A stretch of DNA of 64,000 nucleotides from Thermoanaerobaculia bacterium (GCA_028066595.1 JALCBJ010000030.1:8580-72579); one strand, 5' to 3'. Counted from the first letter of the stretch, positions 6,765-35,790 are shown. Notes: generated by a model from the letters alone, not told the origin. Program-made: numbers and translations.

Positions 6765-6802
6765 GTCGGACTCCTGTGATCGGGTAGGTGTCGATGCGGC
6801 GG

Positions 6803-8872
6803 CTATCGGCGCTGGAACTCAGGTGAGCCGAGGATTACGCCGACGACGTGGGCGGTGAAGCTGTCATCCGGATGGGTTGCTGGCGCCGCTCGCCTTGCTC
6901 GGAGATCGCGCCGTCCGGGTCCTCGTGTGACGTCCCAGTCGGCGTCGCTCGAGACGTCGGTACCCCGGCCACCGGTCCGATCTCTTTCTGCCAAGGGATT
7001 CCAGGTGTTGTCCTCGTCGTCATCGGGCGCAGCTCGGGCGACCTTGTCGGCAAGGTCCGGATCCTGTATCACCGGCAGCAGTCTGCGCATGGTGGGTTCG
7101 GGATCCCGTTCCGGAATCAGGAAGGTGAGCCAATGACGCAATTGCTCCTCCGGTGACGTCTCGTCAGGCGGGTGGCCGGTGTATCGATCGAGCTCTACGC
7201 GAATACCCGCGACCCTTCCCGTGGCGAGCTGGAGACCGAAGTTCATTCGTTGGAGCAGGGCTCCGGTGTTCACCCATGCCTCGGCGCGGTCCGGGAAACC
7301 TGTGGGGGCTTGATACGCGTAGAGCGGTTGACCCATACGCCGGATCCACTCCAGGGTCTCTCGAGGGTCCGAGGAGTGGGCATCGAGTGCACGCAACGCC
7401 GAGATGGTCAGCTCGAATGGGGACTTGATCTTCTGGCCGATTGAGTCGGCCGACCAGAACTCAGGCGATGCGACCAGCTCCGCCAGCATGGCTCGGATAT
7501 CTCCTCCGGACGCTTGATAGATCTTCGCCAGCCGGTCGATGAGAGATCGCGGTGGCTGATCAGAAACGAACCGGATCGCTAGCTTGGTGGAGAGATGCTG
7601 GGCGGTGGACGGATGGTTCGCCAGAAGGTCCAGGACGTCCTCGCCGTCCTCGACACCCCGCCCCGCAGGCAGCTCGCGACCGAGAACGAGCTTGCGCTCC
7701 GCATCGTGGGCGTCCGGGCGGAAAAGAAAGGCATTTTCGATCACGAATCCGGCACGTGTACGTAGGCCTGCTCGGGCCCGTTCCAGTCGCTCCGGCAGTC
7801 CACGAGGTGGCACGACAGTCCAGCCCGTGAAGGATCGGGCCACCTCCACAACATCCTCTTGGGTGTAGCCGCCGTCCACGCCGAGGGTGTGAAGCTCCAT
7901 GAGCTCCCGGGCATAGTTCTCGTTCAGACCTGTGGCCCGTTGCCGGCCTCCTTGCGAGTCGCGCTGCCGCTGGTCGCGTAGCTCGGCCCGCCTCGGGCCA
8001 TTGATTCCACGACGACCTCGCCTCTCCGAGGCTCTTCTCGAGCGCAGGTCCCAGGTTGTCGTGGTGTCCTTCTCGGCCACACTGAGTGCGTTGTCGAGGT
8101 AGAGCAGCATGGCGGGGTGACGGGCGGTGGCTCCCAGCATGTCGTGGAACGAGCCAGCGACATGAGGCCGGATGGCGTCGCGCTCGTAGGGCCAGAGAAA
8201 GATGCGGGCCCGGTTGTCCGTAAGCGAGACGTTGAAGTGGTTGAACCAGAAGTCGGTGAGGACCTCGTGCAGCTGGTTCTCGGAATGCCGGGCGCGCGCC
8301 AGCTTCTGGATCATCAGGTCGGCCAGGGCTTCGCGCTGCGAGCCGAATCCCTTTTCTTCGGCAAGGGCACGGACTGCCCGTCGCTGCTCGGCCCTCTTCC
8401 GAGGCTCGGTTCCGGATCCCTCTGCCGGTAGGGCGGCAGCCGTGTCGCCCTCGGGCGACTCGATCACACCTTCTTGGATCGCCATACGCCGGACGGCCCC
8501 GGGAGACGGATATCGTCGCGCCAGCTCCAGAGCGTCCAGCTCGAAGGTCGCTAGACCCTCCAGGAAGCGATCGAGCTCAGGTGTTGCCAAGCCGCCGTCG
8601 AGTTGCTGCTCGAACCAGGTTTCCAAGCCGATCGCCAAGACCCGGTCGAGGTCGCCGGGTCGAGCGCCGAAGGTAAAGCGGTCGAGCAGATGAGCCGCAG
8701 CCTGGCGTTCCGTCAAGCCTGCCTGTCGCCAGGGCATCTCGATGGAGGAGTCGGCGGAGCCGGTGTGCCCGATATCGGCAGCCAAGGCCCAGCCGGGTAG
8801 TGCCAGCCAAGCGATGAGTAGGGCGAGGTGCCGGTGAGTCGGTGGATGAACAGCGCTGATTCGCGACGGCAT
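6803..8872 (-). CDS. DUF1800 family secreted protein (partner of DUF1501)
   Basis: 689-aa ORF with a signal peptide (MPSRISAVHPPTHRHLALLIAWLALPGWALAA). The early conserved DRFTFGARPGDLD stretch is typical of DUF1800. It lies immediately upstream of the DUF1501 gene. Confidence 0.75.
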   Translation of the reverse strand: MPSRISAVHPPTHRHLALLIAWLALPGWALAADIGHTGSADSSIEMPWRQAGLTERQAAAHLLDRFTFGARPGDLDRVLAIGLETWFEQQLDGGLATPELDRFLEGLATFELDALELARRYPSPGAVRRMAIQEGVIESPEGDTAAALPAEGSGTEPRKRAEQRRAVRALAEEKGFGSQREALADLMIQKLARARHSENQLHEVLTDFWFNHFNVSLTDNRARIFLWPYERDAIRPHVAGSFHDMLGATARHPAMLLYLDNALSVAEKDTTTTWDLRSRRASERRGRRGINGPRRAELRDQRQRDSQGGRQRATGLNENYARELMELHTLGVDGGYTQEDVVEVARSFTGWTVVPPRGLPERLERARAGLRTRAGFVIENAFLFRPDAHDAERKLVLGRELPAGRGVEDGEDVLDLLANHPSTAQHLSTKLAIRFVSDQPPRSLIDRLAKIYQASGGDIRAMLAELVASPEFWSADSIGQKIKSPFELTISALRALDAHSSDPRETLEWIRRMGQPLYAYQAPTGFPDRAEAWVNTGALLQRMNFGLQLATGRVAGIRVELDRYTGHPPDETSPEEQLRHWLTFLIPERDPEPTMRRLLPVIQDPDLADKVARAAPDDDEDNTWNPLAERDRTGGRGTDVSSDADWDVTRGPGRRDLRARRAAPATHPDDSFTAHVVGVILGSPEFQRR

Positions 8873-9094: not shown

Positions 9095-10372
9095 TTAGTG
9101 GGGATCGGAGGCGCGCCGTTGCGGTGCCCTCTCGGGCTCTGTGCCCGAGGGGCCCACCACGCGGTTTCGGCCGCCCTGCTTGGCGCGATAAAGCCGCTCG
9201 TCGGCCAGGCGCAAGGCCTCCGACAAGTCGCTTCCGTCGTCGGGCCAAACCGCGACACCGATCGACACCGTAACCCGGACCACTTTTCCCTTCTCCAGGT
9301 GGATCGGGGTTCCCTCCATGCGGGCGCGCAGGATCTCGAGACGGTTGATTGCATCCTGGATGTTCATGCCTGGGAAGATGCCTGCGAACTCTTCGCCTCC
9401 GTAGCGGGCTACGAGGTCGGTGGTCCGAAACTGATTCGAAAGCACACGGGCGACGCTGACAAGGGCGATATCCCCGGCCTGATGACCATACGAGTCGTTG
9501 AACTTCTTGAAGTGGTCGACGTCGATCATCACCACAGCCACCGGATCGCCCGAGCGCGACGCGATGGCACCGATACGGTGGATGCTCTCGTTGAAGAAAC
9601 CTCGGTTCGCCAGATTGGTCAGGCGATCGCGATTAGAACGTGCCCGCTGTTCTTTGGCGCGAACCACGACCGTGGTGGCGAGAAGAGTCGCCATCGCGAG
9701 CAGGACGCCGCGTCCGATCTGGGAGGTCCAGCTGAACTGCTCCGCGAGAATCGGTGAGGTGGCAGCGTCGTTCAGATCCCACAACCACTCGGTGTAGTAG
9801 ACCAAACCGAGGTACTGCACCACCGCCGTGGTGCCGGCGAGGATACAGACTCTCCAGTCGTAACGCAGACTGGTCGCTCCGATGGCCAAGAAGTAGACCG
9901 GAAAGATCAGGAGGTCGTTGGTCACCTGCAGCGGTTGACCCAGCCGGAGGAAAATGAATAGGGAGAGAGTGACCAGAGACACGTCGATGATGCCGCTGAA
10001 GAAACCTATCCACCCCCGTCCCCAACTGCGCATGACCGCTGAATACACGATCAGGGCCTCGGCGAGGGCGGCAACGGCGAGCCAAAGAATGGCCTCCCGT
10101 CCACGCTCGTTGGGGGAATCGAAGTAGGTGCGGAGAGGGAAATAGAGGATCAGCACGATGATCAGCAGCCGCACGCCTGCGATCAACCATTCTCCCCGTT
10201 GCCCTGCATCGACCAGATCCGGATCCGGTGGGGCCCAGATGCGCCGGAACCAGGCCAGGAATCCGTCGGTCTTCTTCCCTGGCCGAGCCTGGCCAGCCCC
10301 GTGGGAATGTAGCGGTGGTTTGTGGGAGGTCTCGACCACGGTCGCCTGGCCGGGTGCTCCCGAAACGCTCAT
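9095..10372 (-). CDS. Membrane-anchored diguanylate cyclase (multi-TM N-terminal domain + GGDEF)
   Basis: C-terminal GGDEF domain: RYGGEEFAGIF, with DVDHFKKFNDSYGH and an upstream RxxD-like region. The N-terminal half carries five or six hydrophobic helices. Confidence 0.8.
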   Translation of the reverse strand: MSVSGAPGQATVVETSHKPPLHSHGAGQARPGKKTDGFLAWFRRIWAPPDPDLVDAGQRGEWLIAGVRLLIIVLILYFPLRTYFDSPNERGREAILWLAVAALAEALIVYSAVMRSWGRGWIGFFSGIIDVSLVTLSLFIFLRLGQPLQVTNDLLIFPVYFLAIGATSLRYDWRVCILAGTTAVVQYLGLVYYTEWLWDLNDAATSPILAEQFSWTSQIGRGVLLAMATLLATTVVVRAKEQRARSNRDRLTNLANRGFFNESIHRIGAIASRSGDPVAVVMIDVDHFKKFNDSYGHQAGDIALVSVARVLSNQFRTTDLVARYGGEEFAGIFPGMNIQDAINRLEILRARMEGTPIHLEKGKVVRVTVSIGVAVWPDDGSDLSEALRLADERLYRAKQGGRNRVVGPSGTEPERAPQRRASDPH

Positions 10373-10495: not shown

Positions 10496-12967
10496 TTACT
10501 CGCTACGTAGTGCGCTCGAGGGCTCTACGCCCAGGGCTTTGAGCGCGGGTAGCCAGCAAGCCAAGAAGGCGGTGAGCAGCATGGTCAGAACGACGCCTCC
10601 GAGCACTCGCCAATCCACGCCGGCAGACTCGAAAAGGAAAGGTGCAAGGCTGCGGCCCCCCGCTATCGCGCCCACCAAGCCGACGACCAGTCCGGCTGCC
10701 ACCAGAGTCAGAGCCTGGGCCAGCACGAGACGAAGAACCTCCAGGCGCTGGGCACCCAGAGCCATGCGGACACCGATCTCTCGTCGACGTCTGCCTACAC
10801 CGTGGGCAACGATACCCGCGACACCAGCGATGGTGATGAGGAGTGCCAGACCGGCGAACAGCGACACCAAGATCGTGATGGTGCGCGGCGCCGCCGTCGA
10901 ATTCCGCCTGAGCTCTTCGAGCGTGCGAATCTCGGCGACGACCTGGTCAGGAGCGACATGCCAGATAGCGGCCTTCAAATCGCGGGCGAGGGCTCCGGGT
11001 TCGCGATCGGTTCGTAGGAACAGACTATCGGCGAAACCGGACTGGCGTGGATTCTGATATACCGTCGGCTTGGGGGTCTCGTCGGCCCGATTCTGTCGGG
11101 TACTGGCGACGATGCCCACGATCTCGACCCAGGTGCGACCCTGATCGGCGCTGACGCGCTGGCCAAGGGCCGGCCGATCGGGGAACAGCTGGTGGGCTGC
11201 CCGCCGGTCGATGATCAGTACGTCCTGGGAGTCTTCGGTGTCCGAATCGGCGAAAGTGCGGCCCTCTTGCAGAGCGATGCCGAGGGTCTGGAAATAGTCT
11301 TTTCCGGCGATGCGGAATTCGACCTCGGGACCACCGTTGGGGTCGATTGCGCCCTGCTCCTCGGTGAGCAGGCGGAACTGCATAGGTGTCTGCTCCGCGA
11401 GGGGAATTACGTTGCCCAGCGCCACCGACGAGACTCCGGGAACCCCTGCGACGGCCGTTTCGATGCGTTCCAGATAGGGCCGGCGTTCCTCGGCGCTGCC
11501 GAGTTGCGACCAGTTGAGCGGGATCTCGGCCGTGATGATGCGTTCCGTTTCGAAACCGAGGTCCACTTGCTGTAGTCGCCACATGCTGTCCAGGAAGAGT
11601 CCGGCCGCGGCCAGCAGGATCACCGATGCGGCGACCTGTGCCGTGATCAGGAATGCGCGCAGACGAGAGCGACCCACACCGTCGCCCGAGCGGGTTCCAT
11701 CGCGCAAGGCGTCGGCCAGACGCCGCCGAGCCGAGAAGGACAGCAGTGGCAGGCTTCCGGCGGCGATTCCCGCCGCCACCGCGATCACCGCAGTGAATGC
11801 CACCACCCTCAGGTCGAGAGCTACGTCCATCGCCCGCGGCGAGTAGCGGGCGACGAAGCGGGCCAAGATGTCGAGGCTGCGGTAGGCGACGAAGAGTCCA
11901 AAGACGCTCCCTGCGAGAGCCAGCACCGTACTTTCGGTCAACAGCTGTCCCAGGAGGCGACGACGTCCAGCCCCGAGGGCGCCTCGTACAGCCAGCTCCC
12001 GTCGGCGCGCGAGCAGGCGAGCCACGCCCAGGTTGGCGACGTTGGCGCAGGCGATGAGCAACACCAGTGCGGCGGTGGCGAGAAGCATGCCCAGTGTGGA
12101 GCGGGCGCCTCGTCCAAGACGTTCGTCGAGCCTGGAGGTCGCGACCGAGAAGCCGTCTTCCTCCCGGTATGCCTCGGGGTGCTCTTCGCGCCAGGTGGCG
12201 GCGATGCCGTCCATCTCCCGAACCGCGGCCTGCAGATCCTTCCCTTCTGCCAGGCGTCCGAAGATCGACAGACTGCGAAACGCGTTTCGGTTCTCGTGCC
12301 GCATCTCGTTGCCTCGGGCTCGGAACGGGCAGGCCACGGTCGGCATATAGACATCGTGTCGTGCAGGCCACTGCGGGATCGGAGGCAGAACACCTACGAC
12401 CTGGTGAGGGCGGTCGTTCATCTCGAAGACTTGACCGACGATGCCATCGTCGCCACCGAACGCCTGCTGCCAGAACTCCCAAGACAGAACCAGCACGGGA
12501 TCGGCCTCGTGAGTTTCGTCGTCCGCGCGGAAGAGCCGGCCTACTTGTGGTCCCACTCCCAGGACGTCGAAGAAATTCGCCGACACCACCCCTGTCGACA
12601 CCCGGCGTGGTTCGTCACGTCCCAGGAGGATGAAGCTCATCGCGTGGTGCTCGACCACTTCGTCCAGCGTGTGTACCCGTTGCCGTAACTCGTGCATCTC
12701 CTGCACCGAGAAGCGAGTTTGTGTGGCCTGGCGTTTCGGATTCTGCGCTTCGAGCACTACCAGTCGATCGTTGTGCTCGTAGGGCAGGTCTCGCAACAAG
12801 ACTCCGTCCACCAAGCTGAAAATCGCACTGTTGGCGCCGATGGCCAAACCCAGCGTGACAACGACGGTGATCGCATAACCAGGGCTGCGTGCCAGAGTAC
12901 GCAGGGCAAAGCGAAGGTCCTGGCTCTGAGCGTCGAGGAACGATCGGACGGCGGCGAGTGACTTCAT
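10496..12967 (-). CDS. ADOP-type ABC transporter permease (duplicated FtsX/MacB-like), an 'orphan' copy with no adjacent PadR
   Basis: ORF 10496..13210, trimmed to MKSLAAVRSFLDAQSQDLRFALRTLARSPGYAITVV (ATG at 12967). Two FtsX-like 4-TM modules; the C-terminus ...LKALGVEPSSALRSE is typical of FtsX/MacB. Confidence 0.8.
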   Translation of the reverse strand: MKSLAAVRSFLDAQSQDLRFALRTLARSPGYAITVVVTLGLAIGANSAIFSLVDGVLLRDLPYEHNDRLVVLEAQNPKRQATQTRFSVQEMHELRQRVHTLDEVVEHHAMSFILLGRDEPRRVSTGVVSANFFDVLGVGPQVGRLFRADDETHEADPVLVLSWEFWQQAFGGDDGIVGQVFEMNDRPHQVVGVLPPIPQWPARHDVYMPTVACPFRARGNEMRHENRNAFRSLSIFGRLAEGKDLQAAVREMDGIAATWREEHPEAYREEDGFSVATSRLDERLGRGARSTLGMLLATAALVLLIACANVANLGVARLLARRRELAVRGALGAGRRRLLGQLLTESTVLALAGSVFGLFVAYRSLDILARFVARYSPRAMDVALDLRVVAFTAVIAVAAGIAAGSLPLLSFSARRRLADALRDGTRSGDGVGRSRLRAFLITAQVAASVILLAAAGLFLDSMWRLQQVDLGFETERIITAEIPLNWSQLGSAEERRPYLERIETAVAGVPGVSSVALGNVIPLAEQTPMQFRLLTEEQGAIDPNGGPEVEFRIAGKDYFQTLGIALQEGRTFADSDTEDSQDVLIIDRRAAHQLFPDRPALGQRVSADQGRTWVEIVGIVASTRQNRADETPKPTVYQNPRQSGFADSLFLRTDREPGALARDLKAAIWHVAPDQVVAEIRTLEELRRNSTAAPRTITILVSLFAGLALLITIAGVAGIVAHGVGRRRREIGVRMALGAQRLEVLRLVLAQALTLVAAGLVVGLVGAIAGGRSLAPFLFESAGVDWRVLGGVVLTMLLTAFLACWLPALKALGVEPSSALRSE

Positions 12968-13201
12968 GGGTCGGGATCCAGCGTCGAAGGGGATTCGTCG
13001 AATCGGAACGGAGCCGGTAGGTCGATCCTGTGAGTACGGTGAGATTCCACTCGTGTTGCGCTCGCAGGTGTCATACGGTCGAGAGGACCTGTCGTTGACC
13101 GTCCCACTTGACGCCGCTATGCTGACACCGGCGAGAGCGCGCCGGAAGGTATCCGTCCAGGCTTTCCTCTCCGCCCAGCCGCGTATCTTTCCGAGATCCA
13201 A

Positions 13202-14281
13202 GTGACGCAAGACCGCCCCACTCCCCCGACGCCGGATCGATCCTCGTCCTCTTCTCAGTCCATGTCGGATACGACGGCTGATCTCAGCTCGAGGGCAGAG
13301 AATACGATCTTCACAGAGGCTGACACGGGCGAGCTCCAGGCCTTGGCGCAGGCGCGCAAGGATCTGGCGATCGAAGCCAACTTGATTCTCTTCTCACATC
13401 CGGAGGACCGGATGCTGGGAACTCGGTTTCGCCTGGCACCTCACGAACGGCTCGATGTCGGTCGCTCTTCCACGTGCCAGATCGCCATGCCCGGCGTGCG
13501 CTCTCTTTCTCGGAGACACGCTCGGCTGGAGCATCTCGGAGCGGTCGTGGTGATCGAGGACCTCGGCTCGACCAACGGAACCTACGTCAACGACCGCCGC
13601 ATCGATGGGCGGCACCGTCTACGGTCCGGCGACCGGTTTCAAGTGGGCGCGCTGCATTTCAAGTTCTTACATGAACGGGATCCAGAAACCGCGTACCACG
13701 AGGCGATCTACCAGCTGGTCATGTGCGACGGCCTGACGAGGATCTTCAACAAGCGAAAGCTCGATGAGGAACTGCGCAAGGAATACGAGCGTGCACGGCG
13801 TCACCACCGACCGCTGTCACTGATCTTTTTCGATCTCGATCATTTCAAGCTGATCAACGATACTCACGGCCATTTGTGTGGCGACTTCGTCCTGCAGCAG
13901 GTGGCGCGCTTGGTGCAGACCTACCTGCGGTCGGAGCAGGTCTTCGCCCGGGTGGGTGGCGAGGAGTTCGTCATCCTGAATCCGGAGATCGATCAATCGG
14001 GCGCGGTGCAATTGGCCGAGAAACTGCGCCGCCGGATGGCTGAGGAAAAGCTCAGTTACGGTGACGTCGAGTTGGAGCTGACCTGCTCGTTCGGTGTGGC
14101 GGTGCTCGATCCGCTGACCATGACCTCACCCGTCGATTTGTATCGGGCGGCCGACGACGCCATGTACCAATCGAAGCATGCCGGTCGCGACCGGGTGACG
14201 CTCTATGGCACGGAGTCCGACGAGTCGGGCTCCGACGACGGGGAGTCGGGAGAGTCAGAGTCGGAGGCCGCCGGGGATTGA
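13202..14281 (+). CDS. FHA domain-GGDEF diguanylate cyclase
   Basis: FHA signature (GRSSTCQIAMPGVRSLSRRHARLEH...DLGSTNGTYVN) followed by GGDEF (RVGGEEFVIL; DLDHFKLINDTHGH). Acidic Ser/Gly/Glu-rich C-terminal tail. Confidence 0.8.
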   Translation: MTQDRPTPPTPDRSSSSSQSMSDTTADLSSRAENTIFTEADTGELQALAQARKDLAIEANLILFSHPEDRMLGTRFRLAPHERLDVGRSSTCQIAMPGVRSLSRRHARLEHLGAVVVIEDLGSTNGTYVNDRRIDGRHRLRSGDRFQVGALHFKFLHERDPETAYHEAIYQLVMCDGLTRIFNKRKLDEELRKEYERARRHHRPLSLIFFDLDHFKLINDTHGHLCGDFVLQQVARLVQTYLRSEQVFARVGGEEFVILNPEIDQSGAVQLAEKLRRRMAEEKLSYGDVELELTCSFGVAVLDPLTMTSPVDLYRAADDAMYQSKHAGRDRVTLYGTESDESGSDDGESGESESEAAGD

Positions 14282-15390: not shown

Positions 15391-15515
15391 GTCGATGAAA
15401 TCGAGGTCGGCGGGAAGATCGGCCGGACGCTGCGTGTTGGACAGTGCGGGCGCGCGACGTCGCGTCGCTCCGGCCACGAGTTGCAGGAGTCCGGTACTCA
15501 GCTTAACTTAGGGCC

Positions 15516-15884
15516 ATGAGTCCGTTGGATCCCATCGACGTCGAGATGAACCACCCGATCCCTCACGCCCAGATCGCCGACGATCCGGGAAGCGGAACGG
15601 AACTCGACGTCTCCCGCGATCGCAAGACAGAGCGACCGGGAAAGTGGAAGGTTCTGATGCACAACGACGACTACACTACCCAGGACTTCGTCATCGACGT
15701 CCTGGTGCGACACTTCCACAAAGCTCCCGGCGAGGCGACCCACATCATGCTCCAAGTCCACACCAAGGGCGTGGCCGTCGCCGGTGTCTACCCGAAAGAT
15801 CTCGCTGAGACCAAGATTCACGATGTGACCCTCGAAGCGCGGGCTCAGGGGATGCCTCTGGTCCTGTCGATGGAGGAGGCGTGA
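15516..15884 (+). CDS. clpS: ATP-dependent Clp protease adaptor ClpS
   Basis: KWKVLMHNDDYTTQDFVIDVLVRHFHK is the ClpS core. ~120 aa, directly upstream of clpA. Confidence 0.85.
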   Translation: MSPLDPIDVEMNHPIPHAQIADDPGSGTELDVSRDRKTERPGKWKVLMHNDDYTTQDFVIDVLVRHFHKAPGEATHIMLQVHTKGVAVAGVYPKDLAETKIHDVTLEARAQGMPLVLSMEEA

Positions 15885-15951
15885 AGACGATTGGACGTGC
15901 GTCGCCCAGACGAACGCGCCGCGTGGAAGCGGAGAAGCAAGGCACCCATAG

Positions 15952-18195
15952 ATGAAGATCTCCGAAGATCTGCAGATCATTTTCAGCGTCGCCCTATCCG
16001 AAGCGGCGCGATTGCGACACGAATATGCCGGGCTGGAGCATCTGCTCTACGCCCTGTGCATCGATGAAGAAACGGCCAAGGTACTACGCCACGCCGGGGC
16101 CGATGTGACCCGTCTGAAGGACGACCTCTACCTCTACCTCAATGAAGAGATCGAGGTGGTAGACGAGAAGAAGATCTCTTTCGAGCCGCAGCCCAGTCTC
16201 GCGTTTCAGCGCGTGATCGCACGTGCCCACGCCCATGTGGAAGGTGCGGACAAGGAAGTCTTGGAGGGCAAGGACCTGCTGGTAGCCCTTTTCTACGAGA
16301 GCGATTCCGAGGCTGTGCACATGCTGATGGAAATGGGCGTGTCACGGCTCGACGTGGTCAGCTACCTGGCCCATGGGCTTTCGAAGCTCCAGCCCACGTC
16401 GCCGACCCGGCGTCTGCTCACCGCTGACGGCGAGGACGAGGACGAGCTGCCCGCTGAGGACGAGATCCTCGCTGCGTTCGCCCAGAACCTGACGGCGATG
16501 GCGCAGGACGGCGGGCTCGATCCGTTGATCGGTCGCGAGAGGGAGATCTTGCGCACCCTCCACATCTTGCAGCGGCGACGCAAGAACAACCCGATTTACG
16601 TCGGTGATCCCGGCGTCGGCAAGACGGCATTGGCGGAGGGCTTGGCGCTCAAGATCGCTCAGGGAGCGGTTCCGACGCAGTTCGACGCGGTCAAGATCTA
16701 TCGGCTGGACATGGGAGCGCTTCTCGCCGGCACCCGCTACCGCGGTGATTTCGAGAACCGGCTCAAGGGAGTCCTGGCCGCTCTGGAGAAAGAGGATCAA
16801 CCGATCCTCTTCATCGACGAGATTCATACGATCATCGGCGCGGGCTCGGCGGGACGCGGAACGCTCGATGCGTCGAACCTGCTGAAGCCTGCCCTGCAGG
16901 AAGGCCATGTTCGCTTCATTGGAGCCACGACCTGGGAAGAATACCGGCAGAATTTTCAGCATGACCAGGCGTTGTCTCGGCGCTTTCAGAAGGTCGATGT
17001 CATGGAGCCCTCCGTCGACGAGACGGTGAAGATCTTCGAGGGGCTGCGCGAGCGCTACGAGGATCACCACTCGGTCTCGTATACGCGCCCCGCCGTGCGA
17101 GCCGCAGCGGAGCTGGCGTCGCGCTACCTCCGCGACCGGCGCCTGCCCGACAAGGCCATCGATCTTTTGGACGAGGCGGGCGCAGCAGTGGCGTTGGTGG
17201 GAAGGAAGCGGGTCAGCGTGAATCAGCTGGAGCGAGTGCTGTCCACCATGGCGCAGATTCCCGAGCGGAGGGTAAAGGGTGGTGATCGGGAGCGCCTCCA
17301 ACTGTTGGAGTCCGAGCTGAAGCACGTCGTCTTCGGCCAGGATTCCGCGATCGACCGATTGGTCGACGCGATCAAGGTGTCGAGAGCCGGCTTGCGCGAT
17401 CCGAACAAGCCCATCGGGGCATTTCTGCTCACCGGACCCACAGGCGTCGGCAAGACCGAAGTCGCGAAGCAACTGGCGGTGGTGATGGGTATCCACTTCG
17501 CACGCTTCGACATGTCGGAATACATGGAACGTCACACGGTATCGAGGCTGGTGGGCGCTCCTCCTGGCTACGTGGGATTCGATCGTGGTGGTCTGCTGAC
17601 CGAAGCGGTGTCGAAGAATCCCCATGCGGTGATCTTGCTGGACGAGATCGAGAAGGCCCACCCGGACGTCTTCAACATCCTGCTCCAGGTGATGGATCAC
17701 GGGACCCTCACCGACACCAACGGCAAGCAGTCGGACTTCCGTCAGGTGATTCTGCTGATGACGTCCAACGTCGGGGCCCGCGAGATGGCAGGGCGGGCCG
17801 TCGGTTTCGGCGACACGCAAGGGGTTGCCCTGGGGCGTGGCGATGAAGCGTTCGAGAAGGCCTTCAGCCCCGAGTTCCGCAACCGTCTGGATGCGCGGCT
17901 ACAGTTCGCGCCGCTGTCGCAGGAGGTCATGGAGAAGATCGTCGACAAGTTCATCGGCGAGCTGCGGTCCCAACTGCGTCAAAAGAACGTGAAGTTGAAG
18001 CTCACGTCGGCGGCGCGGAAGCTTCTTGCCGAGAAGGGCTACGACCCGGCCTTCGGTGCCCGTCCTCTCGCCCGTGTCGTCGAAGAACAGATCAAGCGTC
18101 CGTTGACGGACGAGATCCTCTTTGGCGCGCTCGAAGGCGGTGGGCGGGTGACGTTGGGCGTCGCCGATGGTCGGCTGGATCTGCGATACGACTGA
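15952..18195 (+). CDS. clpA: ATP-dependent Clp protease ATP-binding subunit ClpA
   Basis: 747 aa with an N-domain plus two AAA+ modules. Walker A motifs GDPGVGKT and GPTGVGKT are present, and the arrangement is the conserved clpS-clpA pair. Confidence 0.9.
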   Translation: MKISEDLQIIFSVALSEAARLRHEYAGLEHLLYALCIDEETAKVLRHAGADVTRLKDDLYLYLNEEIEVVDEKKISFEPQPSLAFQRVIARAHAHVEGADKEVLEGKDLLVALFYESDSEAVHMLMEMGVSRLDVVSYLAHGLSKLQPTSPTRRLLTADGEDEDELPAEDEILAAFAQNLTAMAQDGGLDPLIGREREILRTLHILQRRRKNNPIYVGDPGVGKTALAEGLALKIAQGAVPTQFDAVKIYRLDMGALLAGTRYRGDFENRLKGVLAALEKEDQPILFIDEIHTIIGAGSAGRGTLDASNLLKPALQEGHVRFIGATTWEEYRQNFQHDQALSRRFQKVDVMEPSVDETVKIFEGLRERYEDHHSVSYTRPAVRAAAELASRYLRDRRLPDKAIDLLDEAGAAVALVGRKRVSVNQLERVLSTMAQIPERRVKGGDRERLQLLESELKHVVFGQDSAIDRLVDAIKVSRAGLRDPNKPIGAFLLTGPTGVGKTEVAKQLAVVMGIHFARFDMSEYMERHTVSRLVGAPPGYVGFDRGGLLTEAVSKNPHAVILLDEIEKAHPDVFNILLQVMDHGTLTDTNGKQSDFRQVILLMTSNVGAREMAGRAVGFGDTQGVALGRGDEAFEKAFSPEFRNRLDARLQFAPLSQEVMEKIVDKFIGELRSQLRQKNVKLKLTSAARKLLAEKGYDPAFGARPLARVVEEQIKRPLTDEILFGALEGGGRVTLGVADGRLDLRYD

Positions 18196-18298
18196 CCGGG
18201 TTCATACTCTCCTCTCGATTTCTTTATGATCGACGCAGCGCCGCCGCCTAGGCTTGGGTCCGTGCGTCGCTCTATGAAACCTTTGGATCTTTTTCGTC

Positions 18299-19168
18299 AT
18301 GTCGACTCCGGAGCCGTTCCTCGAAGACTTGTGGCGCCGACCGATGCCGGAGATGGCATCGGAGCCGTTGACGCGGCTGTATATCCGCGGGGCAGCCGAT
18401 CTGGCGCGGAGAAAGTGGATCCGCTCGGTGGAAGGACTGGAGCACATCGCGGTGGAGAACGACCCGTTCGTTCTGGTAGCCAATCACAGCCAGCGCCCGG
18501 AGACCGTGATCTTGAATGCGCTGCTGGCGTTCCATCGTGACGGGCGGCTGGTGCATTTTCTGGCCGACTGGCCGATGATGCTAGTTCCGGGCGTGGCAAT
18601 GCTCTACAGACGGGGTGGCGTGATACCGGTCTTCGGCAAGAAGCCCAAGGTTCGCTTCTTGGCGGCCGTGGAGCAGTTCTTTCGACGGGCTCACCCAGGC
18701 ACGGCCTGGGAACGAGCAAGGAATCATTTGGATGCCGGGCGATCGGTGGGAGTGTTTCCCGAGGCAACCATGAACCGAAATCGTCGTAGGATGCTGCGTG
18801 GGCGCCCCGGTGCGGCTCTCTTGGCTCTAGAGGCCGGCGTGCCAGTGGTACCCGTAGGGCTTCGATTCCACGACGAGCCGCGAAGCCGGCCCATCGGCGA
18901 TTTCGAGCCCTTCTCGGTCCACATCGGACCTGCGATCCCGACACCTGCCATCCCGTCCCTGTCCGGCGACGACCAGACGGCGCGCACACTCCTCCGATCT
19001 ACAACGAAGGAGTTGCAACGAGAATTGATGCTTCGCATCTCTGAGCTGTGTGGCAAAACTTGGCGCCCAGATGCTGCCCGACGCAAGGGACGAGCGGATG
19101 CGGCCGAATCCTCTGAGATGAACGAAACGACCCGAACCGAACCTGGAGACCGACATGGCGTTACGTGA
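18299..19168 (+). CDS. PlsC-family lysophospholipid O-acyltransferase (OlsA-like)
   Basis: LPLAT motifs: VANHSQRPE (H-x4-D/E block), FPEAT, VPVVPVG. The stop overlaps the next ORF's start by 14 nt. Confidence 0.7.
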   Translation: MSTPEPFLEDLWRRPMPEMASEPLTRLYIRGAADLARRKWIRSVEGLEHIAVENDPFVLVANHSQRPETVILNALLAFHRDGRLVHFLADWPMMLVPGVAMLYRRGGVIPVFGKKPKVRFLAAVEQFFRRAHPGTAWERARNHLDAGRSVGVFPEATMNRNRRRMLRGRPGAALLALEAGVPVVPVGLRFHDEPRSRPIGDFEPFSVHIGPAIPTPAIPSLSGDDQTARTLLRSTTKELQRELMLRISELCGKTWRPDAARRKGRADAAESSEMNETTRTEPGDRHGVT

Positions 19169-19844
19169 TGAGCTGACCGTTCGCAAGGTGGAGGATGCCG
19201 GAGGGTACCGCGCGGCGCTCGATGTGCTCGGCACCGTCTATCTCGGCGAGAAAGGCTGGGGGACCCCAGAGCAGCTCTTCCCCGAATCGGACCTGAGCTC
19301 GGCCGCCATGTCGTGGTTCCTGGCAGAACGCGACGGCATACCGGTCGGTGTCACCCGCGTGCTCTACGAGATTCCCTTCGACCTCTATACCGCCTACGAG
19401 TTCGAGCTGGAGATCCCGGGACTCGACGTGGAGGCTTTCATCCGTGCGAACCGGATCGCAGAGGTCGGGCGATTCGCCGTCATTCCGGAGTATCGGAAGC
19501 AGATCCTGGTGGCGGCCATCCTGATGAGGGCCGCTGCCACCGAAACGGTGGAACGGGGCTTCTCCCACTTCATCACCGACGTCTTCGAGTCCGATCCCAA
19601 CAGCCCATTCGAGTTCCACCGCCGCATTCTCGGATTCGAGATCGTCGCGTCTCACGATCACGGTGAGCTGAAGATCGACTCCAAGCGGATCACGATGTTG
19701 CTCGATCTGAAGGCCGCCTACCAGCGCATGAGCCGCCGGAAGAGCTGGATCTTTCGTTACATCACGGACGGGTGGAACGAGGCTCTGATCGATCGGCTGT
19801 CGACGAAACCGCCCGCCGCGCCTGCCCCCCTCGTAACCGTGTGA
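19155..19844 (+). CDS. GNAT-fold N-acyltransferase of the N-acyl amino acid synthase / OlsB / FeeM type
   Basis: ~230 aa Acetyltransf_5-like protein (EVGRFAVIPEYRK...) without the canonical acetyl-CoA Q/RxxGxG/A motif. Size and position immediately after a PlsC-like gene mirror olsB/olsA. Family assignment is from pattern memory and needs an HMM check. Confidence 0.5.
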   Translation: MALRDELTVRKVEDAGGYRAALDVLGTVYLGEKGWGTPEQLFPESDLSSAAMSWFLAERDGIPVGVTRVLYEIPFDLYTAYEFELEIPGLDVEAFIRANRIAEVGRFAVIPEYRKQILVAAILMRAAATETVERGFSHFITDVFESDPNSPFEFHRRILGFEIVASHDHGELKIDSKRITMLLDLKAAYQRMSRRKSWIFRYITDGWNEALIDRLSTKPPAAPAPLVTV

Positions 19845-20000
19845 GTCCTCAGAACTCTGAGCCGATCGCGCCGGGAATCGGAGCGGCGCTCGGCCGAGTT
19901 CTGTCCAACTCTAGAGAGTGGCGGGTTTGCCGGATCCGTCCGGCGTCGATAGCTCCTGTCGCTGCCACTCCGAATCGAACCGCAGTCTAGCCTTCTTCCG

Positions 20001-22538
20001 TTGATGCTCAGTCTCCTCTCCCCACGCCGTCTGGCGGCCCGGTTGATGACCGCCTCCGCCCATCGCCCGAGAACCGTTCTGTGGACGTCGGGTGCTCTTC
20101 TCTTGTTGGCATTGTTCGTTGCATCGAGGGTGCAGATCGATGCCGACGTTCTCGCGCTCTTGCCTGAGAGCGACGAAGCGGTGGCCGATTTCCGCGAGAC
20201 CATGGACCGTTTCGGCGGGCTCAACCTCCTGCTGGTCGCGCTGGAAGTGGATCCCGCAGAACGACAACGGTCCGGGATCCGTCCGGCGCTCTCGTATGCC
20301 GATCATCTGGCACGGGAGGTACGAGCGCTCGAGTCGATCCGGTGGCTCGAGTACCATCGGGACGATCTTCGGGACGCGGCCCTCGATCTTCTGCCCTGGG
20401 CACCGCTCTTCATGTCGGAGAGCGATCTAGAGGAGTTGCTCGCCACCGTCGAAGATCCGGAGAAGCTGGATCGAGCTGTGGCCGAGTTGAAGGCCTCCCT
20501 GCGGTCTCCCGCGAACCTGCCGTTCAAGGACCTCCGGGTCGTCGATCCATTCGGAATGGTGCCCCGGGCGGCGGATCGCTTCGCCCAGTCCGGTGTGGAG
20601 CAGCGCTTCGACTCCGGCACCGGGTATGTGCTCGATCCAGAGGAGCGATTCGTGCTGCTGTTGGCGGAACCGACCCGCCCGGCGGCAGACGTCGTCTTCG
20701 GTCGGCGTTTGTTGGCCGACCTCGAAGCGGCTTCGGCGCGTGCGACAGAAACCTGGCGCGCAGAGGGCTGGGACGGTGATCCGCCGCGGGTGCGCATCGG
20801 TGGCGGACACGCGGTCGCGGTGTACGACTCTCAACTGATCGTCGGAGATCTGAGTGTCGGATCGGCTGGGGCGCTGGTAGCGGTGATCACGCTATTCGCT
20901 GTTGCGTTCGGTCGTCCCATTTCTCTGGTGGTGGCAGCCGTGCCGTTACTCGCCGGTCTCGTGTTCACTGCCGCGTTCGGCGTCGCCACTCTGGGACGAC
21001 TCGATGCGGTGACCGGCTCCTTCGCGGCCTTGCTGATCGGCCTTGGAGTAGATTTCGTCATCGTGCTCTACGGCCGCTACGTGGAGGAGCGACGTTCCGG
21101 TGTCGATCACGCGACGGCGGTCGGCGATGGCCTGCGTCATACCGCGTCTGGCGTCATGCTGGGAGCCGTCACCACCGCTGCCACCTTCTACGCCTTCCTC
21201 ATCTCCGACTTTAAGGGTCTGTGGCGTCTCGGCTGGCTGACGGGCGGCGGGATCCTGCTCGTGATGACGACAGTCTTCGTCCTACTGCCGGCGATCTTGG
21301 GTAGCGCGGAGCAGCGCTTCGGAGAGAAGACGCATCGTATTCGGGGCTTCGGGGCCAGGCACCTCTTCCGCTGGAGTTTGCGTCGACCCAAGACCATGGT
21401 GGCACTCAACCTGGTACTGACTGTCTTCCTGGGACTCGGCGCGTTGCGCGTGGAGTACACCGACGACGCGCTGGCGCTGCGATCGACCGAGAATCCAGGT
21501 GGCCAAACACAGACCGAGGTCATGCGCGCTTTTGGGTTGCGCTTCGTGCCCTACATGGTGCGAGTCGACGGCGTCGACGAAGCGGAGGCGCTGGCGCGGG
21601 CTCGCCGCGTCGACACTGCGATTCGGAAACTGGTGGACGGCGAGGCGCTGGCGAAGGTGGAGTCGATCGCGTCTTGGCTGCCCGATCCTGCGCACCAGGA
21701 GAAGCAATTGGAACGCCTGCGTCGCTTCGACCCTGGAACCGACCTACGCCAGCGACTCGAAGAGGCGTTTCGCCGGGGAGGGCTGTCTCCCGAGGGCTTC
21801 GCCCGCGGTCTCGATCACCTGGAGAAGGCCCTCGGTTTGGAACGACCGCTCCTCCCCAGTACTCTGGCGGAGACCGCGCTGGCTCCAGCCGTGGGCCGTT
21901 ACTCTTGGTTGGGGAGCGCTGGCGCCTCGACGGTGATCTACGCCTATCCGCCCCCGGATCGATGGCGTACGGAGATGCCGCCGGGCCTCGAGGAGACCAT
22001 CGCCGCGGCGGGACTACAAGATCACGTGGCGATTACCGGCACGCAGGTCGTATCGTGGCGGCTCAAGGAAGTCGTCTGGCGCGACGCCCGCCGAGCGACC
22101 TTGCTGGGGACCGCCGTCGTCTTCGTCTTCCTTGCCTTCGACCTCGGCGGGATCCGCAGAGCTGTGCTGGCCCTGTTGCCACTCGGCGTAGGCATCGTCT
22201 GGATGTTGGGGTTGATGGCGCTCGCCGGCATCCAGGTCAACTTCATGAATCTGTTCGTCTTCACGATGATCCTCGGAATCGGCGTGGACTACGGAATTCA
22301 CCTGGTACATCGCAGGCGCGAGGCCGGCGATCAAGCCCTTCCCGGCACGGCCGCCGCGATCGCGGTCGCCGCGCTGACGACGGTATGCGGCTTCGGTTCG
22401 CTCGTCTTCAGCCATTTTCCCGGTCTACAGAGCATGGGAGCTGCCGCTATTTTCGGCACGCTGTCGACGGCTTGGCTATCGGTGACATTGCTGCCGGCTC
22501 TCTTCGCTTGGCGGCGCGAGACATCACGGGATCCATGA
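20001..22538 (+). CDS. MMPL/RND-superfamily exporter (HpnN-like lipid transporter)
   Basis: 845 aa with two repeated blocks of ~6 TM helices, each followed by a large soluble loop, as in MMPL/HpnN exporters. Co-directional and directly downstream of the two acyltransferases. Confidence 0.7.
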   Translation: MMLSLLSPRRLAARLMTASAHRPRTVLWTSGALLLLALFVASRVQIDADVLALLPESDEAVADFRETMDRFGGLNLLLVALEVDPAERQRSGIRPALSYADHLAREVRALESIRWLEYHRDDLRDAALDLLPWAPLFMSESDLEELLATVEDPEKLDRAVAELKASLRSPANLPFKDLRVVDPFGMVPRAADRFAQSGVEQRFDSGTGYVLDPEERFVLLLAEPTRPAADVVFGRRLLADLEAASARATETWRAEGWDGDPPRVRIGGGHAVAVYDSQLIVGDLSVGSAGALVAVITLFAVAFGRPISLVVAAVPLLAGLVFTAAFGVATLGRLDAVTGSFAALLIGLGVDFVIVLYGRYVEERRSGVDHATAVGDGLRHTASGVMLGAVTTAATFYAFLISDFKGLWRLGWLTGGGILLVMTTVFVLLPAILGSAEQRFGEKTHRIRGFGARHLFRWSLRRPKTMVALNLVLTVFLGLGALRVEYTDDALALRSTENPGGQTQTEVMRAFGLRFVPYMVRVDGVDEAEALARARRVDTAIRKLVDGEALAKVESIASWLPDPAHQEKQLERLRRFDPGTDLRQRLEEAFRRGGLSPEGFARGLDHLEKALGLERPLLPSTLAETALAPAVGRYSWLGSAGASTVIYAYPPPDRWRTEMPPGLEETIAAAGLQDHVAITGTQVVSWRLKEVVWRDARRATLLGTAVVFVFLAFDLGGIRRAVLALLPLGVGIVWMLGLMALAGIQVNFMNLFVFTMILGIGVDYGIHLVHRRREAGDQALPGTAAAIAVAALTTVCGFGSLVFSHFPGLQSMGAAAIFGTLSTAWLSVTLLPALFAWRRETSRDP

Positions 22539-22550
22539 TCCCGCCGGTGG

Positions 22551-23000
22551 CTATTCGAATCGGCGCATCGGGATGTGGGGGATGCCCACTTCGGTGAAGC
22601 GTTCGCCGTCGTCTTGGAAGCCGAGACTCTCGTAGAACTCCTGGAGGTGAGATTGGGCGTTCAGGACGAATCGTCGGTGTCCGGATCGCCTCGCCTCTTC
22701 GACGACGAAACGCACGAGTGGCCTGCCATAGCCGTTTCCGCGATGCGCCTCGAGTATGGCGAAGCGCTCCAGTTTCGCGGCTGGAGCGCCGCGATAGGCG
22801 ACGACGCGCCAACGGGCGCAGGCGGCTGGCTCGCCCTCGATGACTCCGAGGACGTGTCGGGCCGTAGCGTCGTGCTCGTCCCACTCGTCCGAAGGTGAAC
22901 AGCGCTGTTCCTCCACGAAGACACGCTGGCGGATGCTCTGGACTGCCCGCCAGCCCTCGTCGTCCACCACGCGGACGAATCGGATCTCGGGCGCGGTCAT
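22551..23000 (-). CDS. GNAT family N-acetyltransferase
   Basis: 149 aa with GNAT motif A (LEAHRGNGYGRPLV). Confidence 0.75.
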   Translation of the reverse strand: MTAPEIRFVRVVDDEGWRAVQSIRQRVFVEEQRCSPSDEWDEHDATARHVLGVIEGEPAACARWRVVAYRGAPAAKLERFAILEAHRGNGYGRPLVRFVVEEARRSGHRRFVLNAQSHLQEFYESLGFQDDGERFTEVGIPHIPMRRFE

Positions 23001-23003
23001 GGT

Positions 23004-25223
23004 TCAGGGTGCGGGCTCGACACCCATCTCGCGGAGCAGGAAATCGACTTGATCGATCTCGTCCATCATCCAGAGCATGTAGCGCACGTCGACGTTGATG
23101 GAGCGCGATACCTGCGGCAGAAAGTCCCAGTCCGAGATGATCGACTCCCAGTTGCCGTCGAAGGCCAAGCCGACGAGTCGGCCTTTGCCGTCGAGCACTG
23201 CCGAGCCGGAATTCCCGCCCGTGATGTCGAGATCGGCCAGGAAATTGACGGGTACCGTTTCCTTTTCACCGTGCAGAAGTCCCTGGACGCCGTACTGGCC
23301 ATGGCGCTCGTCGCGAACGGCTTCCAACACCTCCGCCGGAGCATCGAAGGGCGCCTCTCCCGTGTCCTTCTGTAGCAGGCCCTGGAGAGTGGTAAACGGC
23401 AGGTGTGAGGAGCCGTCCCGCGGCGAGTAGCCTTGGACGTTGCCGAAAGTTACACGCAACGTGCTGTTGGCATCGGGGTACACCGAGCGACCCAGAGAGT
23501 CCAGATAGCTCAGGAGAGCCTCCATGTACTTTGGACGCCGGGAGCTGATCTTGCCGGACAGCTCCTCGGCAGCAACCTCTCGTCGCATGGTCTCGTCGTA
23601 CAACGCCACCACCGCTGCGAGGAACGGATCGTCCGACGATTCGATGTCTTCCGTCGTGGCATCGATCAGCGCGAGCCGTACCTCACCATCGTCCAGGCGC
23701 GTCCCGGAGTAGAAACGCTCCAGTGCGCTGTCGACTTGAGACTCCAGAGACTTTGACTCGTCCTCGGTCGAGGTCCCAGCAGACGGATCGACACCGAACA
23801 GCGAGTCGATCACATCGATACGCACCGAAGGTTCGGCGGTGAAGTACTCGAGAATTCCATCTTTCCAGAGCGCTCGGTCGACGTCGGGATCGAAGCGCCG
23901 GTCCTGGCGCTCCAGACGCGCCCGGAAGAATCGCATGTCGCGTTCCTGATATCCGGACTTGCGCTCGGCATCGGGCTTTTCCTGCTCCTTTGCCAGGCGG
24001 TGGAGTCGCGAAGCCGTCCGGTAGAGAGTGCTGCCGAGCGCGCCGAATTGGAGGCTGTCCCGCAGGTCGTCGGCGTGGGCTTCGGATAGCAGATCGCGCA
24101 GTTCCTTCAGCGCGTCACCCCAGCGAGCCTTGCGGTCGGGGTCGGCCTCGATCCAGGCGGCCAGCTCGGATTCCAGGGCCTTCTTCCGCTCCAGCATGTT
24201 GCCCTTGGAATAGCCTTCCAACATGCCCTTGCGGTTCTTCAAGCCATTGTTGATACCGCCGACCATGCTGGCGTATTTGATCGCTGCTTCCGGATCGTCG
24301 GCGGTTGCCTCGTCGATGATTCCGAGCGTCTCGGTCATCTGCTCGACACCGTACGGATAGCTCCATCCGAAGGTGTGCTCGATCTCGGCCGCCAGACGAT
24401 GGCGGCTGGTGAAGCCTGGATAGCCCAGTACCATAACGAAGTCGCCGCTCTGGACACCATCGGGAGCCACCTCGAGATAGCTCGTAGGACGATAGGGCAC
24501 GTTCTCCTCCGCCGGGTCGGCGGGCTCGCCGTCGGGCGACACGTAGGCGCGATAGAACGCAAAGTCGCCGGTGTGACGGGGCCACTGCCAATTGTCGACA
24601 TCGCCACCGTAGCGTCCCACCGATCCCTTGGGCGCATAGACGATCCGTACGTCGCGGATCTCCAGCTGCTTGGTCAATCGGTAGTGGTGGCCGCCGTGGT
24701 AGGACGCGACTCGACAGCGATGACCCTCGTCTTCCTCACACTCGGCGACGATCGCCTTACGGCGATCTTCCCGGGCATCGTAGCGAGCCTTGCCGTCGAG
24801 CTCTTCCAGGCCCTCGGTCATGCGCGAAGTGACGTCGTCGAAAGCTACCGTAACCAGGATTCGCGAGCCGGGCCCGGCTGCGATCTCCTCCGAGCGCTCG
24901 TGGGCGATGAAGCCGTCCTGGATCAGGTTCCGCTCTTCCGTGGAGTTGAGCTGCAGCGCGCCGTAGGCGCAGTGGTGATTTGTCACCGCCAGACCGTCGG
25001 CGGAGACGAACGACGCAGTGCAACCACCGAGGGAGATCACGGCGCTCATGGGATGTTGCGTCACGTCAGCCAGGGTGGAGGGTGGAACCTCGAGTCCGGC
25101 GTCCTTCAGAGCCGGGGCGATGTCGGGAAGCTGTTCCGGAGTCCACATTCCCTCGCGGGCGGACGCAGGAGCGGTCAGGAGTAGAGCTGCGAGGCAGGTG
25201 AGTAGGGGGCGTTCGAGGCGCAT
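23004..25223 (-). CDS. Peptidase S46 family serine dipeptidyl-peptidase (DPP7/DPP11-like), secreted
   Basis: Signal peptide; catalytic-His region GGCTASFVSADGLAVTNHHC; catalytic-Ser region DLDITGGNSGSAVLDGKGRLVGLAFDG. 739 aa fits the S46 size. Confidence 0.8.
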   Translation of the reverse strand: MRLERPLLTCLAALLLTAPASAREGMWTPEQLPDIAPALKDAGLEVPPSTLADVTQHPMSAVISLGGCTASFVSADGLAVTNHHCAYGALQLNSTEERNLIQDGFIAHERSEEIAAGPGSRILVTVAFDDVTSRMTEGLEELDGKARYDAREDRRKAIVAECEEDEGHRCRVASYHGGHHYRLTKQLEIRDVRIVYAPKGSVGRYGGDVDNWQWPRHTGDFAFYRAYVSPDGEPADPAEENVPYRPTSYLEVAPDGVQSGDFVMVLGYPGFTSRHRLAAEIEHTFGWSYPYGVEQMTETLGIIDEATADDPEAAIKYASMVGGINNGLKNRKGMLEGYSKGNMLERKKALESELAAWIEADPDRKARWGDALKELRDLLSEAHADDLRDSLQFGALGSTLYRTASRLHRLAKEQEKPDAERKSGYQERDMRFFRARLERQDRRFDPDVDRALWKDGILEYFTAEPSVRIDVIDSLFGVDPSAGTSTEDESKSLESQVDSALERFYSGTRLDDGEVRLALIDATTEDIESSDDPFLAAVVALYDETMRREVAAEELSGKISSRRPKYMEALLSYLDSLGRSVYPDANSTLRVTFGNVQGYSPRDGSSHLPFTTLQGLLQKDTGEAPFDAPAEVLEAVRDERHGQYGVQGLLHGEKETVPVNFLADLDITGGNSGSAVLDGKGRLVGLAFDGNWESIISDWDFLPQVSRSINVDVRYMLWMMDEIDQVDFLLREMGVEPAP

Positions 25224-35327: not shown

Positions 35328-35353
35328 ATCATATCAGCGGACCATCTCGACCT

Positions 35354-35716: not shown

Positions 35717-35790
35717 CTCGTCTCCCGGGGGAACGTGGCGTAGCCCTGGCGGGGGCTGGGGAGCCACCTGGGTGCTGTATCATCTCGCCC

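Follow-up and report, generated by a model that had tools for sequence, protein, structure and literature searches.

The locus at positions 18,299 to 22,538 of a 64,000-nucleotide stretch of Thermoanaerobaculia bacterium DNA (GCA_028066595.1 JALCBJ010000030.1:8580-72579, the whole of which is referred to as the window) raises the question of what product is made by two adjacent acyltransferase genes and whether the transporter gene that follows them belongs to the same pathway. The original prediction, made from the DNA alone, envisaged an aminolipid formed by N-acylation and then O-acylation, following the logic of OlsB and OlsA in ornithine lipid synthesis, and exported by the transporter. 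This interpretation is supported as far as sequence analysis reaches. With a probability that we put at roughly 60%, the acyltransferase pair is a two-step N- then O-acylation synthase of a diacyl aminolipid, to which this clade adds an inner-to-outer-membrane exporter. Three open reading frames are present:

18299..19168, + strand, 289 aa: LPLAT/PlsC-fold acyltransferase, proposed O-acyltransferase (PF01553, AlphaFold2 (AF2) fold, NHSQRPE and FPEAT motifs)
19155..19844, + strand, 229 aa: FeeM-like GNAT, proposed acyl-carrier-dependent N-acyltransferase (PF21926, AF2 fold, AEVGRFA motif)
20001..22538, + strand, 845 aa: MMPL/HpnN-like RND (HAE3-type) transporter, proposed lipid exporter (PF03176, nearest solved chains HpnN)

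The ATG of the GNAT gene at 19155 precedes the TGA of the LPLAT gene at 19166-19168, reproducing both the gene coordinates and the 14-nt stop/start overlap of the original prediction. Database entries from a Thermoanaerobaculia (Acidobacteriota) metagenome-assembled genome match the GNAT and LPLAT proteins of the window at 100% identity. We propose that the overlap lets both proteins be made together through translational coupling. Conservation of the arrangement was followed in a scan of one genome per species, which returned 347 loci with relatives of the GNAT, the best 80 of the 347 being used for comparison. In 78 of the 80 loci, tblastn, from which the synteny counts are taken, places an LPLAT orthologue directly 5' of the GNAT gene and in the same orientation; simple calling of open reading frames gave antisense artefacts in GC-rich loci (clusters c2 and c4). 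The junction is overlapping or shorter than 12 nt in 72 of the 75 loci in which it was measured, which indicates that the coupling originally read from the window is a trait of the family and not a quirk of this locus. The loci span Acidobacteriota, Verrucomicrobiota (Limisphaerales, Pedosphaera and others), Chromatiaceae (Thiocapsa, Imhoffiella, Thiococcus and Thioalkalicoccus), Lysobacterales and a few other groups, with the cultured carriers including Acanthopleuribacter pedis KCTC 12899, Sulfidibacter corallicola M133, Imhoffiella purpurea AK35, Thiococcus pfennigii and Thioalkalicoccus limnaeus. In two acidobacterial loci (L023 and L040) the GNAT gene has no adjacent LPLAT gene and is flanked instead by a Big_1-like protein 5' and a DUF218 protein 3', a shared alternative context which marks them as a single lineage in which the pair was separated.

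The pair also occurs in nature as a single gene. A GNAT family profile searched against 1.84 billion representative proteins (E ≤ 1e-3) recovered only 206 representatives. This makes the family a small one with sharp limits, which at the sensitivity of HMMER does not merge with OlsB, OlsF or generic GNATs. At least seven clusters at 50% identity are single-gene fusions of 436-509 aa, with PF01553 N-terminal, the FeeM-like GNAT C-terminal and NHx4E retained (representatives P0122, P0127, P0131, P0133, P0138, P0141 and P0149). One fusion (L081) is a lone gene amid unrelated neighbours. Another is seen on three independent contigs, which shows that the fusions did not arise as artefacts of assembly. 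The window contains the split form in the same order as the fusions, LPLAT first and GNAT second. Fusion combined with conserved adjacency provides strong genomic evidence that both enzymes act in the same pathway, and the joint action of OlsB/OlsA type that had been predicted gains support from adjacency across phyla, from the conserved overlapping junction and from fusions in the order found in OlsF.

Assignment of the first gene to the PlsC family of acyltransferases was confirmed, as its product matches PF01553 with 61.3 bits against a gathering score of 23, and the same domain is present in all listed homologues. The AF2 model (pLDDT 89) has the LPLAT fold, all 19 PDB fold matches at E ≤ 1e-3 being PlsC (5kym), PatA, GPAT or LpxM. 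Motif I reads NHSQRPE (H63, E68), an HX4E variant, and motif III reads FPEAT (residues 153-157); of 75 orthologues, 73 retain the H and E of NHx4E and all retain the E of FPEAT/FPEGT. PlsC carries HX4D rather than HX4E. In LpxM, another LPLAT, E127 is named as the catalytic residue in the title of PDB entry 5knk. With the catalytic motifs intact, a role as O-acyltransferase is proposed for the protein from its sequence, in which no transmembrane helix is predicted and no hydropathy peak is observed. Two more specific identities were tried and rejected: bona fide PlsC (TIGR00530; 43 bits against a cutoff of 102.95) and OlsA (NCBIfam NF052553), for which the window protein has no hit at E ≤ 0.01 and the best fusion scores 21.7 bits against a cutoff of 300. 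Homologues are publicly annotated as '1-acyl-sn-glycerol-3-phosphate acyltransferase'.

The second gene had been described as a GNAT-fold enzyme of OlsB or FeeM type, of which FeeM is the closer by profile and fold. The protein matches the generic PF00583 GNAT model above its gathering score (22.6 versus 20.7 bits) and scores 23.1 bits against PF21926 (FeeM), for which the gathering score is 27. PF21926 is the best specific profile for 30 of 30 family members at E ≤ 0.01 (best 2e-8), and a precomputed PF21926 hit is carried by most homologues. PF13444, the OlsB-type model, is matched weakly in 19 of the 30 members (best E 1.6e-4), the window protein reaching 17.1 bits against a gathering score of 22.4, and one fusion, P0141, lies just over that score at 23.2 bits. 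Because its PF13444 score lies under the threshold, the protein appears to be a FeeM-like rather than an OlsB-type N-acyltransferase. FeeM chains (2g0b) occupy PDB fold ranks 1 to 4 for its AF2 model (pLDDT 86; E 1e-8, TM-score on target 0.72-0.74). A motif AEVGRFA with invariant E103 and R106 was identified in the alignment of homologues, which we take to be like the ExSRF motif on the catalytic strand of LuxI/NAS enzymes. By analogy, we propose that the protein may function as an N-acyl synthase using acyl carrier protein (ACP)-bound acyl chains and free amino acids. No NCBIfam model matches the window GNAT, and its homologues, annotated publicly as 'GNAT family N-acetyltransferase', are absent from the plasmid collection. 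Identity as a PEP-CTERM/exosortase-associated acyltransferase (TIGR03694) was rejected, the window protein having no hit and two fusions reaching 17-21 bits against a cutoff of 111.95.

The relationship of the pair to known aminolipid synthases was examined with Pfam and NCBIfam models as proxies for OlsB, OlsF and GlsB. The known routes to ornithine-type lipids are OlsBA, OlsF and the GH3-type OlsHI (PMC11631085, PMC12971839, PMC12493201), and reviews of 2024 and 2026 describe the known aminolipid N-acyltransferases as either PF13444 enzymes or the GH3 enzyme OlsH, PF13444 being common to every known aminolipid N-acyltransferase and the FeeM/Nas enzymes forming a separate branch (PMC11631085). 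Like the pair described here, OlsB/OlsA and, in glutamine lipid synthesis, GluB/OlsA combine a GNAT-superfamily N-acyltransferase with an LPLAT/PlsC-type O-acyltransferase (PMC11631085, PMC12971839). They differ in that the N-acyltransferase here falls below the PF13444 threshold and fits FeeM better, the LPLAT lacks an NCBIfam OlsA match and carries HX4E, and the family profile (206 of 1.84 billion) does not merge with the large OlsB family. The ornithine/lysine lipid synthase OlsF has the same order, O-acyltransferase then N-acyltransferase (PMC12971839), and the relation of fused OlsF to the split GlsA and GlsB of Bacteroidota glycine lipid synthesis parallels that of P0127, P0138 and the other fusions to the split pair of the window. 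Compared through profile models, OlsF differs from the fusions, which are ∼500 aa in length, in that their N-acyl domain is not of PF13444 type, although a very distant common origin is possible. The GNAT resembles FeeM in its best specific profile and its best solved structure (2g0b, E 1e-8, TM-score 0.74 on target) and presumably also in an E..R motif on the central strand of both, but shares only 15-18% identity with it; furthermore, no coupling to an O-acyltransferase is known for FeeM/Nas enzymes, in contrast to this GNAT. OlsH and OlsI of planctomycetes likewise provide an ATP-dependent, two-enzyme route to an acyloxyacyl aminolipid (PMC12493201), indicating that such pathways arose more than once, but consist of a GH3 adenylating enzyme and an alpha/beta-hydrolase, entirely different families from those found here.

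The third gene encodes an MMPL protein, as predicted, matching PF03176 with 104.9 bits in two stretches. Its hydrophobic segments are clustered at residues 26-51, 307-484 and 700-804 (hydropathy) in RND-like blocks, and the closest solved chains are those of HpnN (5khn/6wu0, E 4e-24), with MmpL3, MmpL4 and MmpL5 also among the solved relatives. It therefore shares with HpnN, BstA and MmpL3 the pair of MMPL domains and the RND-like topology, and its gene is likewise situated beside genes that make the presumed cargo. In contrast to this general likeness, the protein scores far under the equivalog cutoffs: HpnN was rejected as an identity (TIGR03480, 223.7 versus 751.85 bits; NF052374, 133.4 versus 1100), the BstA model gave 157.6 bits against a cutoff of 1400, and the HAE3 match is also sub-threshold. 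No hopanoid genes were found among the open reading frames scanned in the window and no sterol genes are located nearby. In a neighbour-joining tree of the GNATs, the 13 MMPL-linked loci, including the window, all fall in one clade. Linkage is observed in 13 of the 16 loci of this Thermoanaerobaculia/Holophagae/Acanthopleuribacter/Sulfidibacter clade, which spans two classes, and in none of ∼59 loci of other clades. In every linked locus the transporter gene follows the pair in the same orientation at a distance of 70-550 nt, a position kept even though the MMPL proteins have diverged to 45-57% identity, which argues for a functional link between the transporter and the pair in this clade. Given the 156-nt gap between the GNAT stop and the MMPL gene, together with the absence of the transporter elsewhere, MMPL is a lineage-specific accessory rather than part of the conserved core. 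The literature search revealed no report of an RND transporter for aminolipids, no transporter is mentioned in the aminolipid reviews, and the search for aminolipid transport found only a Brucella Mla-Pqi chimera affecting lyso-ornithine lipid (PMC12436622).

The following scheme is inferred with respect to the acyl donor, the sequence of the two reactions, the acceptor, the esterified position, the membrane localisation and the transporter substrate. The GNAT would first join an acyl chain in amide linkage to a small amine-bearing acceptor, for which an amino acid is the likeliest candidate; the donor would most likely be acyl-ACP, by analogy with ACP delivery in FeeM, OlsB and LuxI, and the chain probably a 3-hydroxyacyl group. 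The LPLAT, acting through its HX4E dyad, would then esterify a second acyl chain onto a hydroxyl of the N-acyl product, provided either by the first chain (its 3-OH) or by a side chain, and the outcome would be a two-tailed, phosphorus-free aminolipid. HpnN moves hopanoids from the inner membrane toward the outer membrane. In the Thermoanaerobaculia/Holophagae/Acanthopleuribacteraceae lineage, the HpnN-like RND protein may correspondingly shift the finished lipid from the inner toward the outer membrane. Sulfidibacter corallicola M133, which holds the three-gene module (L009), contains five unidentified ninhydrin-positive lipids (PMC8841776), a circumstantial sign of the product of the module.

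Several observations weigh against this proposal. No product is known for any family member, the literature search on the family found no paper and that on PF21926 likewise found nothing. As given above, the window GNAT lies under the Pfam gathering scores of both FeeM and PF13444. A PDB sequence search with the GNAT family profile gave no hits and does not reach FeeM, while the single sequence recovered only a chance-level match to SufC (E 1.2), so that FeeM was found by fold search only. The E-value lead of FeeM in that search over generic acetyltransferases and the carrier-protein-dependent SbzI is small, and the acceptor could therefore be something other than an amino acid. The transporter is missing from ∼64 of the 80 loci and from 3 of the 16 in its own clade and, given the 156-nt gap, may be transcribed and used independently. 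With respect to the lipids of S. corallicola, a neutral amino acid acylated at its alpha-nitrogen would give no ninhydrin reaction. In addition, A. pedis, S. corallicola and a Thermoanaerobaculia metagenome-assembled genome also hold GH3/OlsH homologues (PMC12493201), from which it follows that amino-positive lipids in these organisms need not stem from the module. The FeeM/Nas-type products described to date also have no 3-hydroxyl group, and no further acylation of them is known (PMC11631085).

Other explanations of the locus were considered against the same evidence. The pair could remodel a glycerophospholipid, the GNAT N-acylating, for example, (lyso)phosphatidylethanolamine or phosphatidylserine to give a lipid of the N-acyl-phosphatidylethanolamine type and the LPLAT re-acylating the lyso form. 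The best solved relatives of the LPLAT are indeed glycerolipid acyltransferases (PlsC 5kym, GPAT), its automatic name is that of a 1-acyl-sn-glycerol-3-phosphate acyltransferase, a gene of PF03372, presumably a family that contains phospholipases, abuts the pair in five loci of two lineages, and the acceptor of the GNAT is proposed from analogy. Set against this, the LPLAT reaches only 43 of the 103 bits required by the PlsC model TIGR00530 and has HX4E, like the non-glycerolipid enzyme LpxM, and not HX4D; the sole specific profile and best fold match of the GNAT are those of an amino-acid N-acyl synthase; and the fused architecture mirrors the aminolipid synthase OlsF. We consider remodelling unlikely. 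We also think it improbable that the product is a secreted N-acyl amino acid with a single acyl chain, made by the GNAT alone as a signal, surfactant or antibiotic and exported by MMPL, while the LPLAT is supporting or unrelated. Secreted long-chain N-acyl amino acids are familiar products of FeeM-type enzymes (PMC11631085) and MMPL/RND proteins export amphiphiles, the siderophore exporters MmpL4/5 being examples, but this scheme leaves unexplained the adjacency, overlap or fusion of the LPLAT in nearly all genomes as well as the absence of the exporter from most loci, and tailoring genes like those of fee clusters are not conserved nearby.

Two further explanations find little room in these data. 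One is a locus for quorum sensing, in which the GNAT is a divergent LuxI-like acyl-homoserine-lactone synthase; a LuxI-type match is an outcome that the original prediction named as counting against it. The invariant W35, D46, R68, E103 and R106 presumably match the residue spacing of LuxI, and HdtS, of the LPLAT family, is reportedly a producer of acyl-homoserine lactones; yet PF00765 is unmatched at E ≤ 0.01 in the window protein and in all 30 family members, no conserved LuxR-type regulator is found nearby, and among the 50 PDB fold matches listed there is no LuxI-family structure and FeeM leads. A LuxI-like function is consequently rejected on profile and genomic context. Accidental adjacency of three genes with unrelated housekeeping roles would accord with the mixed housekeeping surroundings, clpS/clpA 5' and an S46 peptidase 3', but not with a pair that stays together in 78 of 80 loci from several phyla and is fused in nature, nor with the retention of MMPL beside it in 13 of the clade's 16 loci despite protein identities of 45-57%. 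Chance is very unlikely for the LPLAT-GNAT pair on this genomic evidence and is rejected.

A two-step aminolipid synthase would be unsurprising to a lipid specialist in its logic; the family itself is unrecognised, widespread and mis-annotated. As an apparently undescribed variant of the known two-step synthases, the module combines a FeeM-like N-acyltransferase, an HX4E LPLAT, the existence of both split and fused forms and a clade-specific HpnN-like exporter. Further acylation of FeeM/Nas products into membrane-type lipids is unreported according to the 2024 review (PMC11631085), and the module, carried by hundreds of genomes of Acidobacteriota, Verrucomicrobiota and purple sulfur bacteria, is a concrete and widely distributed candidate for such a reaction, while the HpnN-like neighbour offers a handle on how aminolipids reach the outer membrane. 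Should the product turn out to be a common ornithine or lysine lipid, predictions from genomes as to which bacteria make such lipids would still be corrected. A bolder version, which we put forward tentatively and regard as possible but somewhat doubtful, is that the pair evolved independently as a fourth route to bacterial aminolipids with two acyl tails, based on a FeeM/Nas-type synthase instead of an OlsB-type one, with a head group other than ornithine, lysine, glycine or glutamine (an amino acid that is hydroxylated or aromatic and receives the second chain on its side chain being one possibility), and with the first dedicated aminolipid RND exporter in one acidobacterial lineage.

No conserved third gene was found beside the pair in the 80 loci, save MMPL in the one clade. 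Other neighbours vary and include CstA, a beta-lactamase-fold protein, a GFO/IDH/MocA oxidoreductase, a glucose/sorbosone dehydrogenase, DUF697 and a planctomycete-type cytochrome, and clpA, which is close to the pair in a few loci, seems to be there by coincidence. The PF03372 endonuclease/exonuclease/phosphatase gene is found in two arrangements, in lineages of Verrucomicrobiota and Gammaproteobacteria:

PF03372 gene 5' of the pair: L042 5076-6047, L059 2964-3926, L072 4899-6002
PF03372 gene 3' of the pair: L046 1197-2024, L049 7704-8534

We take this family to include sphingomyelinase-type phospholipases, and the neighbour may hint at membrane-lipid remodelling. In an acidobacterial metagenome-assembled genome (L010), a flavin monooxygenase gene (7425-8552, +; Pyr_redox_3, also matching the Lys/Orn N-oxygenase-like PF13434) overlaps the stop codon of the GNAT gene and occupies the place held by MMPL in sister loci; its product could be a tailoring enzyme for the lipid or its head group. 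Two tandem LPLAT genes (L074 3354-4379 and 4471-5298, +) precede the GNAT gene on a contig labelled Bauldia and could reflect either a third acylation or a recent duplication. In L050 (4734-6998, +) and L078 (4186-6486, +) the LPLAT frame is open for ∼750 aa, with PF01553 confined to residues ∼550-690 and no match over the first ∼500, which is either an N-terminal extension or an over-long reading frame in GC-rich DNA.

Signals for expression were sought around the module in the window, and two short elements were noted:

19145..19148, + strand: GGAG Shine-Dalgarno-like motif within the 3' end of the LPLAT gene (read from sequence)
18201..18230, + strand: weak sigma-70-like promoter match TTCATA-18-TATGAT in the 103-nt clpA-LPLAT gap (promoter scan)

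The GGAG motif is located 6 nt 5' of the GNAT ATG, and this start is well supported as the N-terminus MALRDELTV aligns in register with the starts of 29 homologues. The MMPL start is less certain, with candidates at TTG 20001, ATG 20004 and ATG 20046 and homologue alignments beginning only at residues 17-47; the true start is possibly ATG 20004 or ATG 20046. The module is preceded by clpS (15516-15884) and clpA (15952-18195) and is bounded at 22538 by a convergent S46 dipeptidyl-peptidase gene (23004-25223, −). Promoter and terminator scans of 15400-23100 gave counts equal to those of shuffled sequence, and no terminator was detected in the gaps that separate the pair from clpA on one side and from MMPL on the other. 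The match at 18201..18230 was the sole promoter-like match in this region, where shuffled sequence gives a mean of 1.2, and is thus only a hint. A phosphate-starvation Pho box, suggested originally as a possible element upstream of 18299, was not found: no E. coli-type site (CTGTCATNNNNCTGTCAT, ≤3 mismatches) is present near 18299 and the whole window contains 2 against 3.3 expected by chance, the E. coli consensus not being expected to apply in Acidobacteriota.

Elsewhere in the 64-kb window no tRNA genes and no Rfam families at gathering score were detected. Two closely spaced diguanylate cyclase genes (13202-14281, +, and 9095-10372, −), one with an FHA domain, are followed by clpS/clpA and then by the lipid module, and the window also contains a pair of DUF1501/DUF1800 genes and genes for two large permeases of MacB/FtsX type (5508-8872, 10496-13210 and 31352-34282, all −). 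Finally, an open reading frame of 646 aa at 35158-37098 (+) carries a receiver domain (PF00072, aa 216-325, E 1e-27) in frame with a complete LpxC (PF03331, aa 371-640, E 2e-81), a fusion which would subject the committed step of lipid A synthesis to control by phosphorylation.

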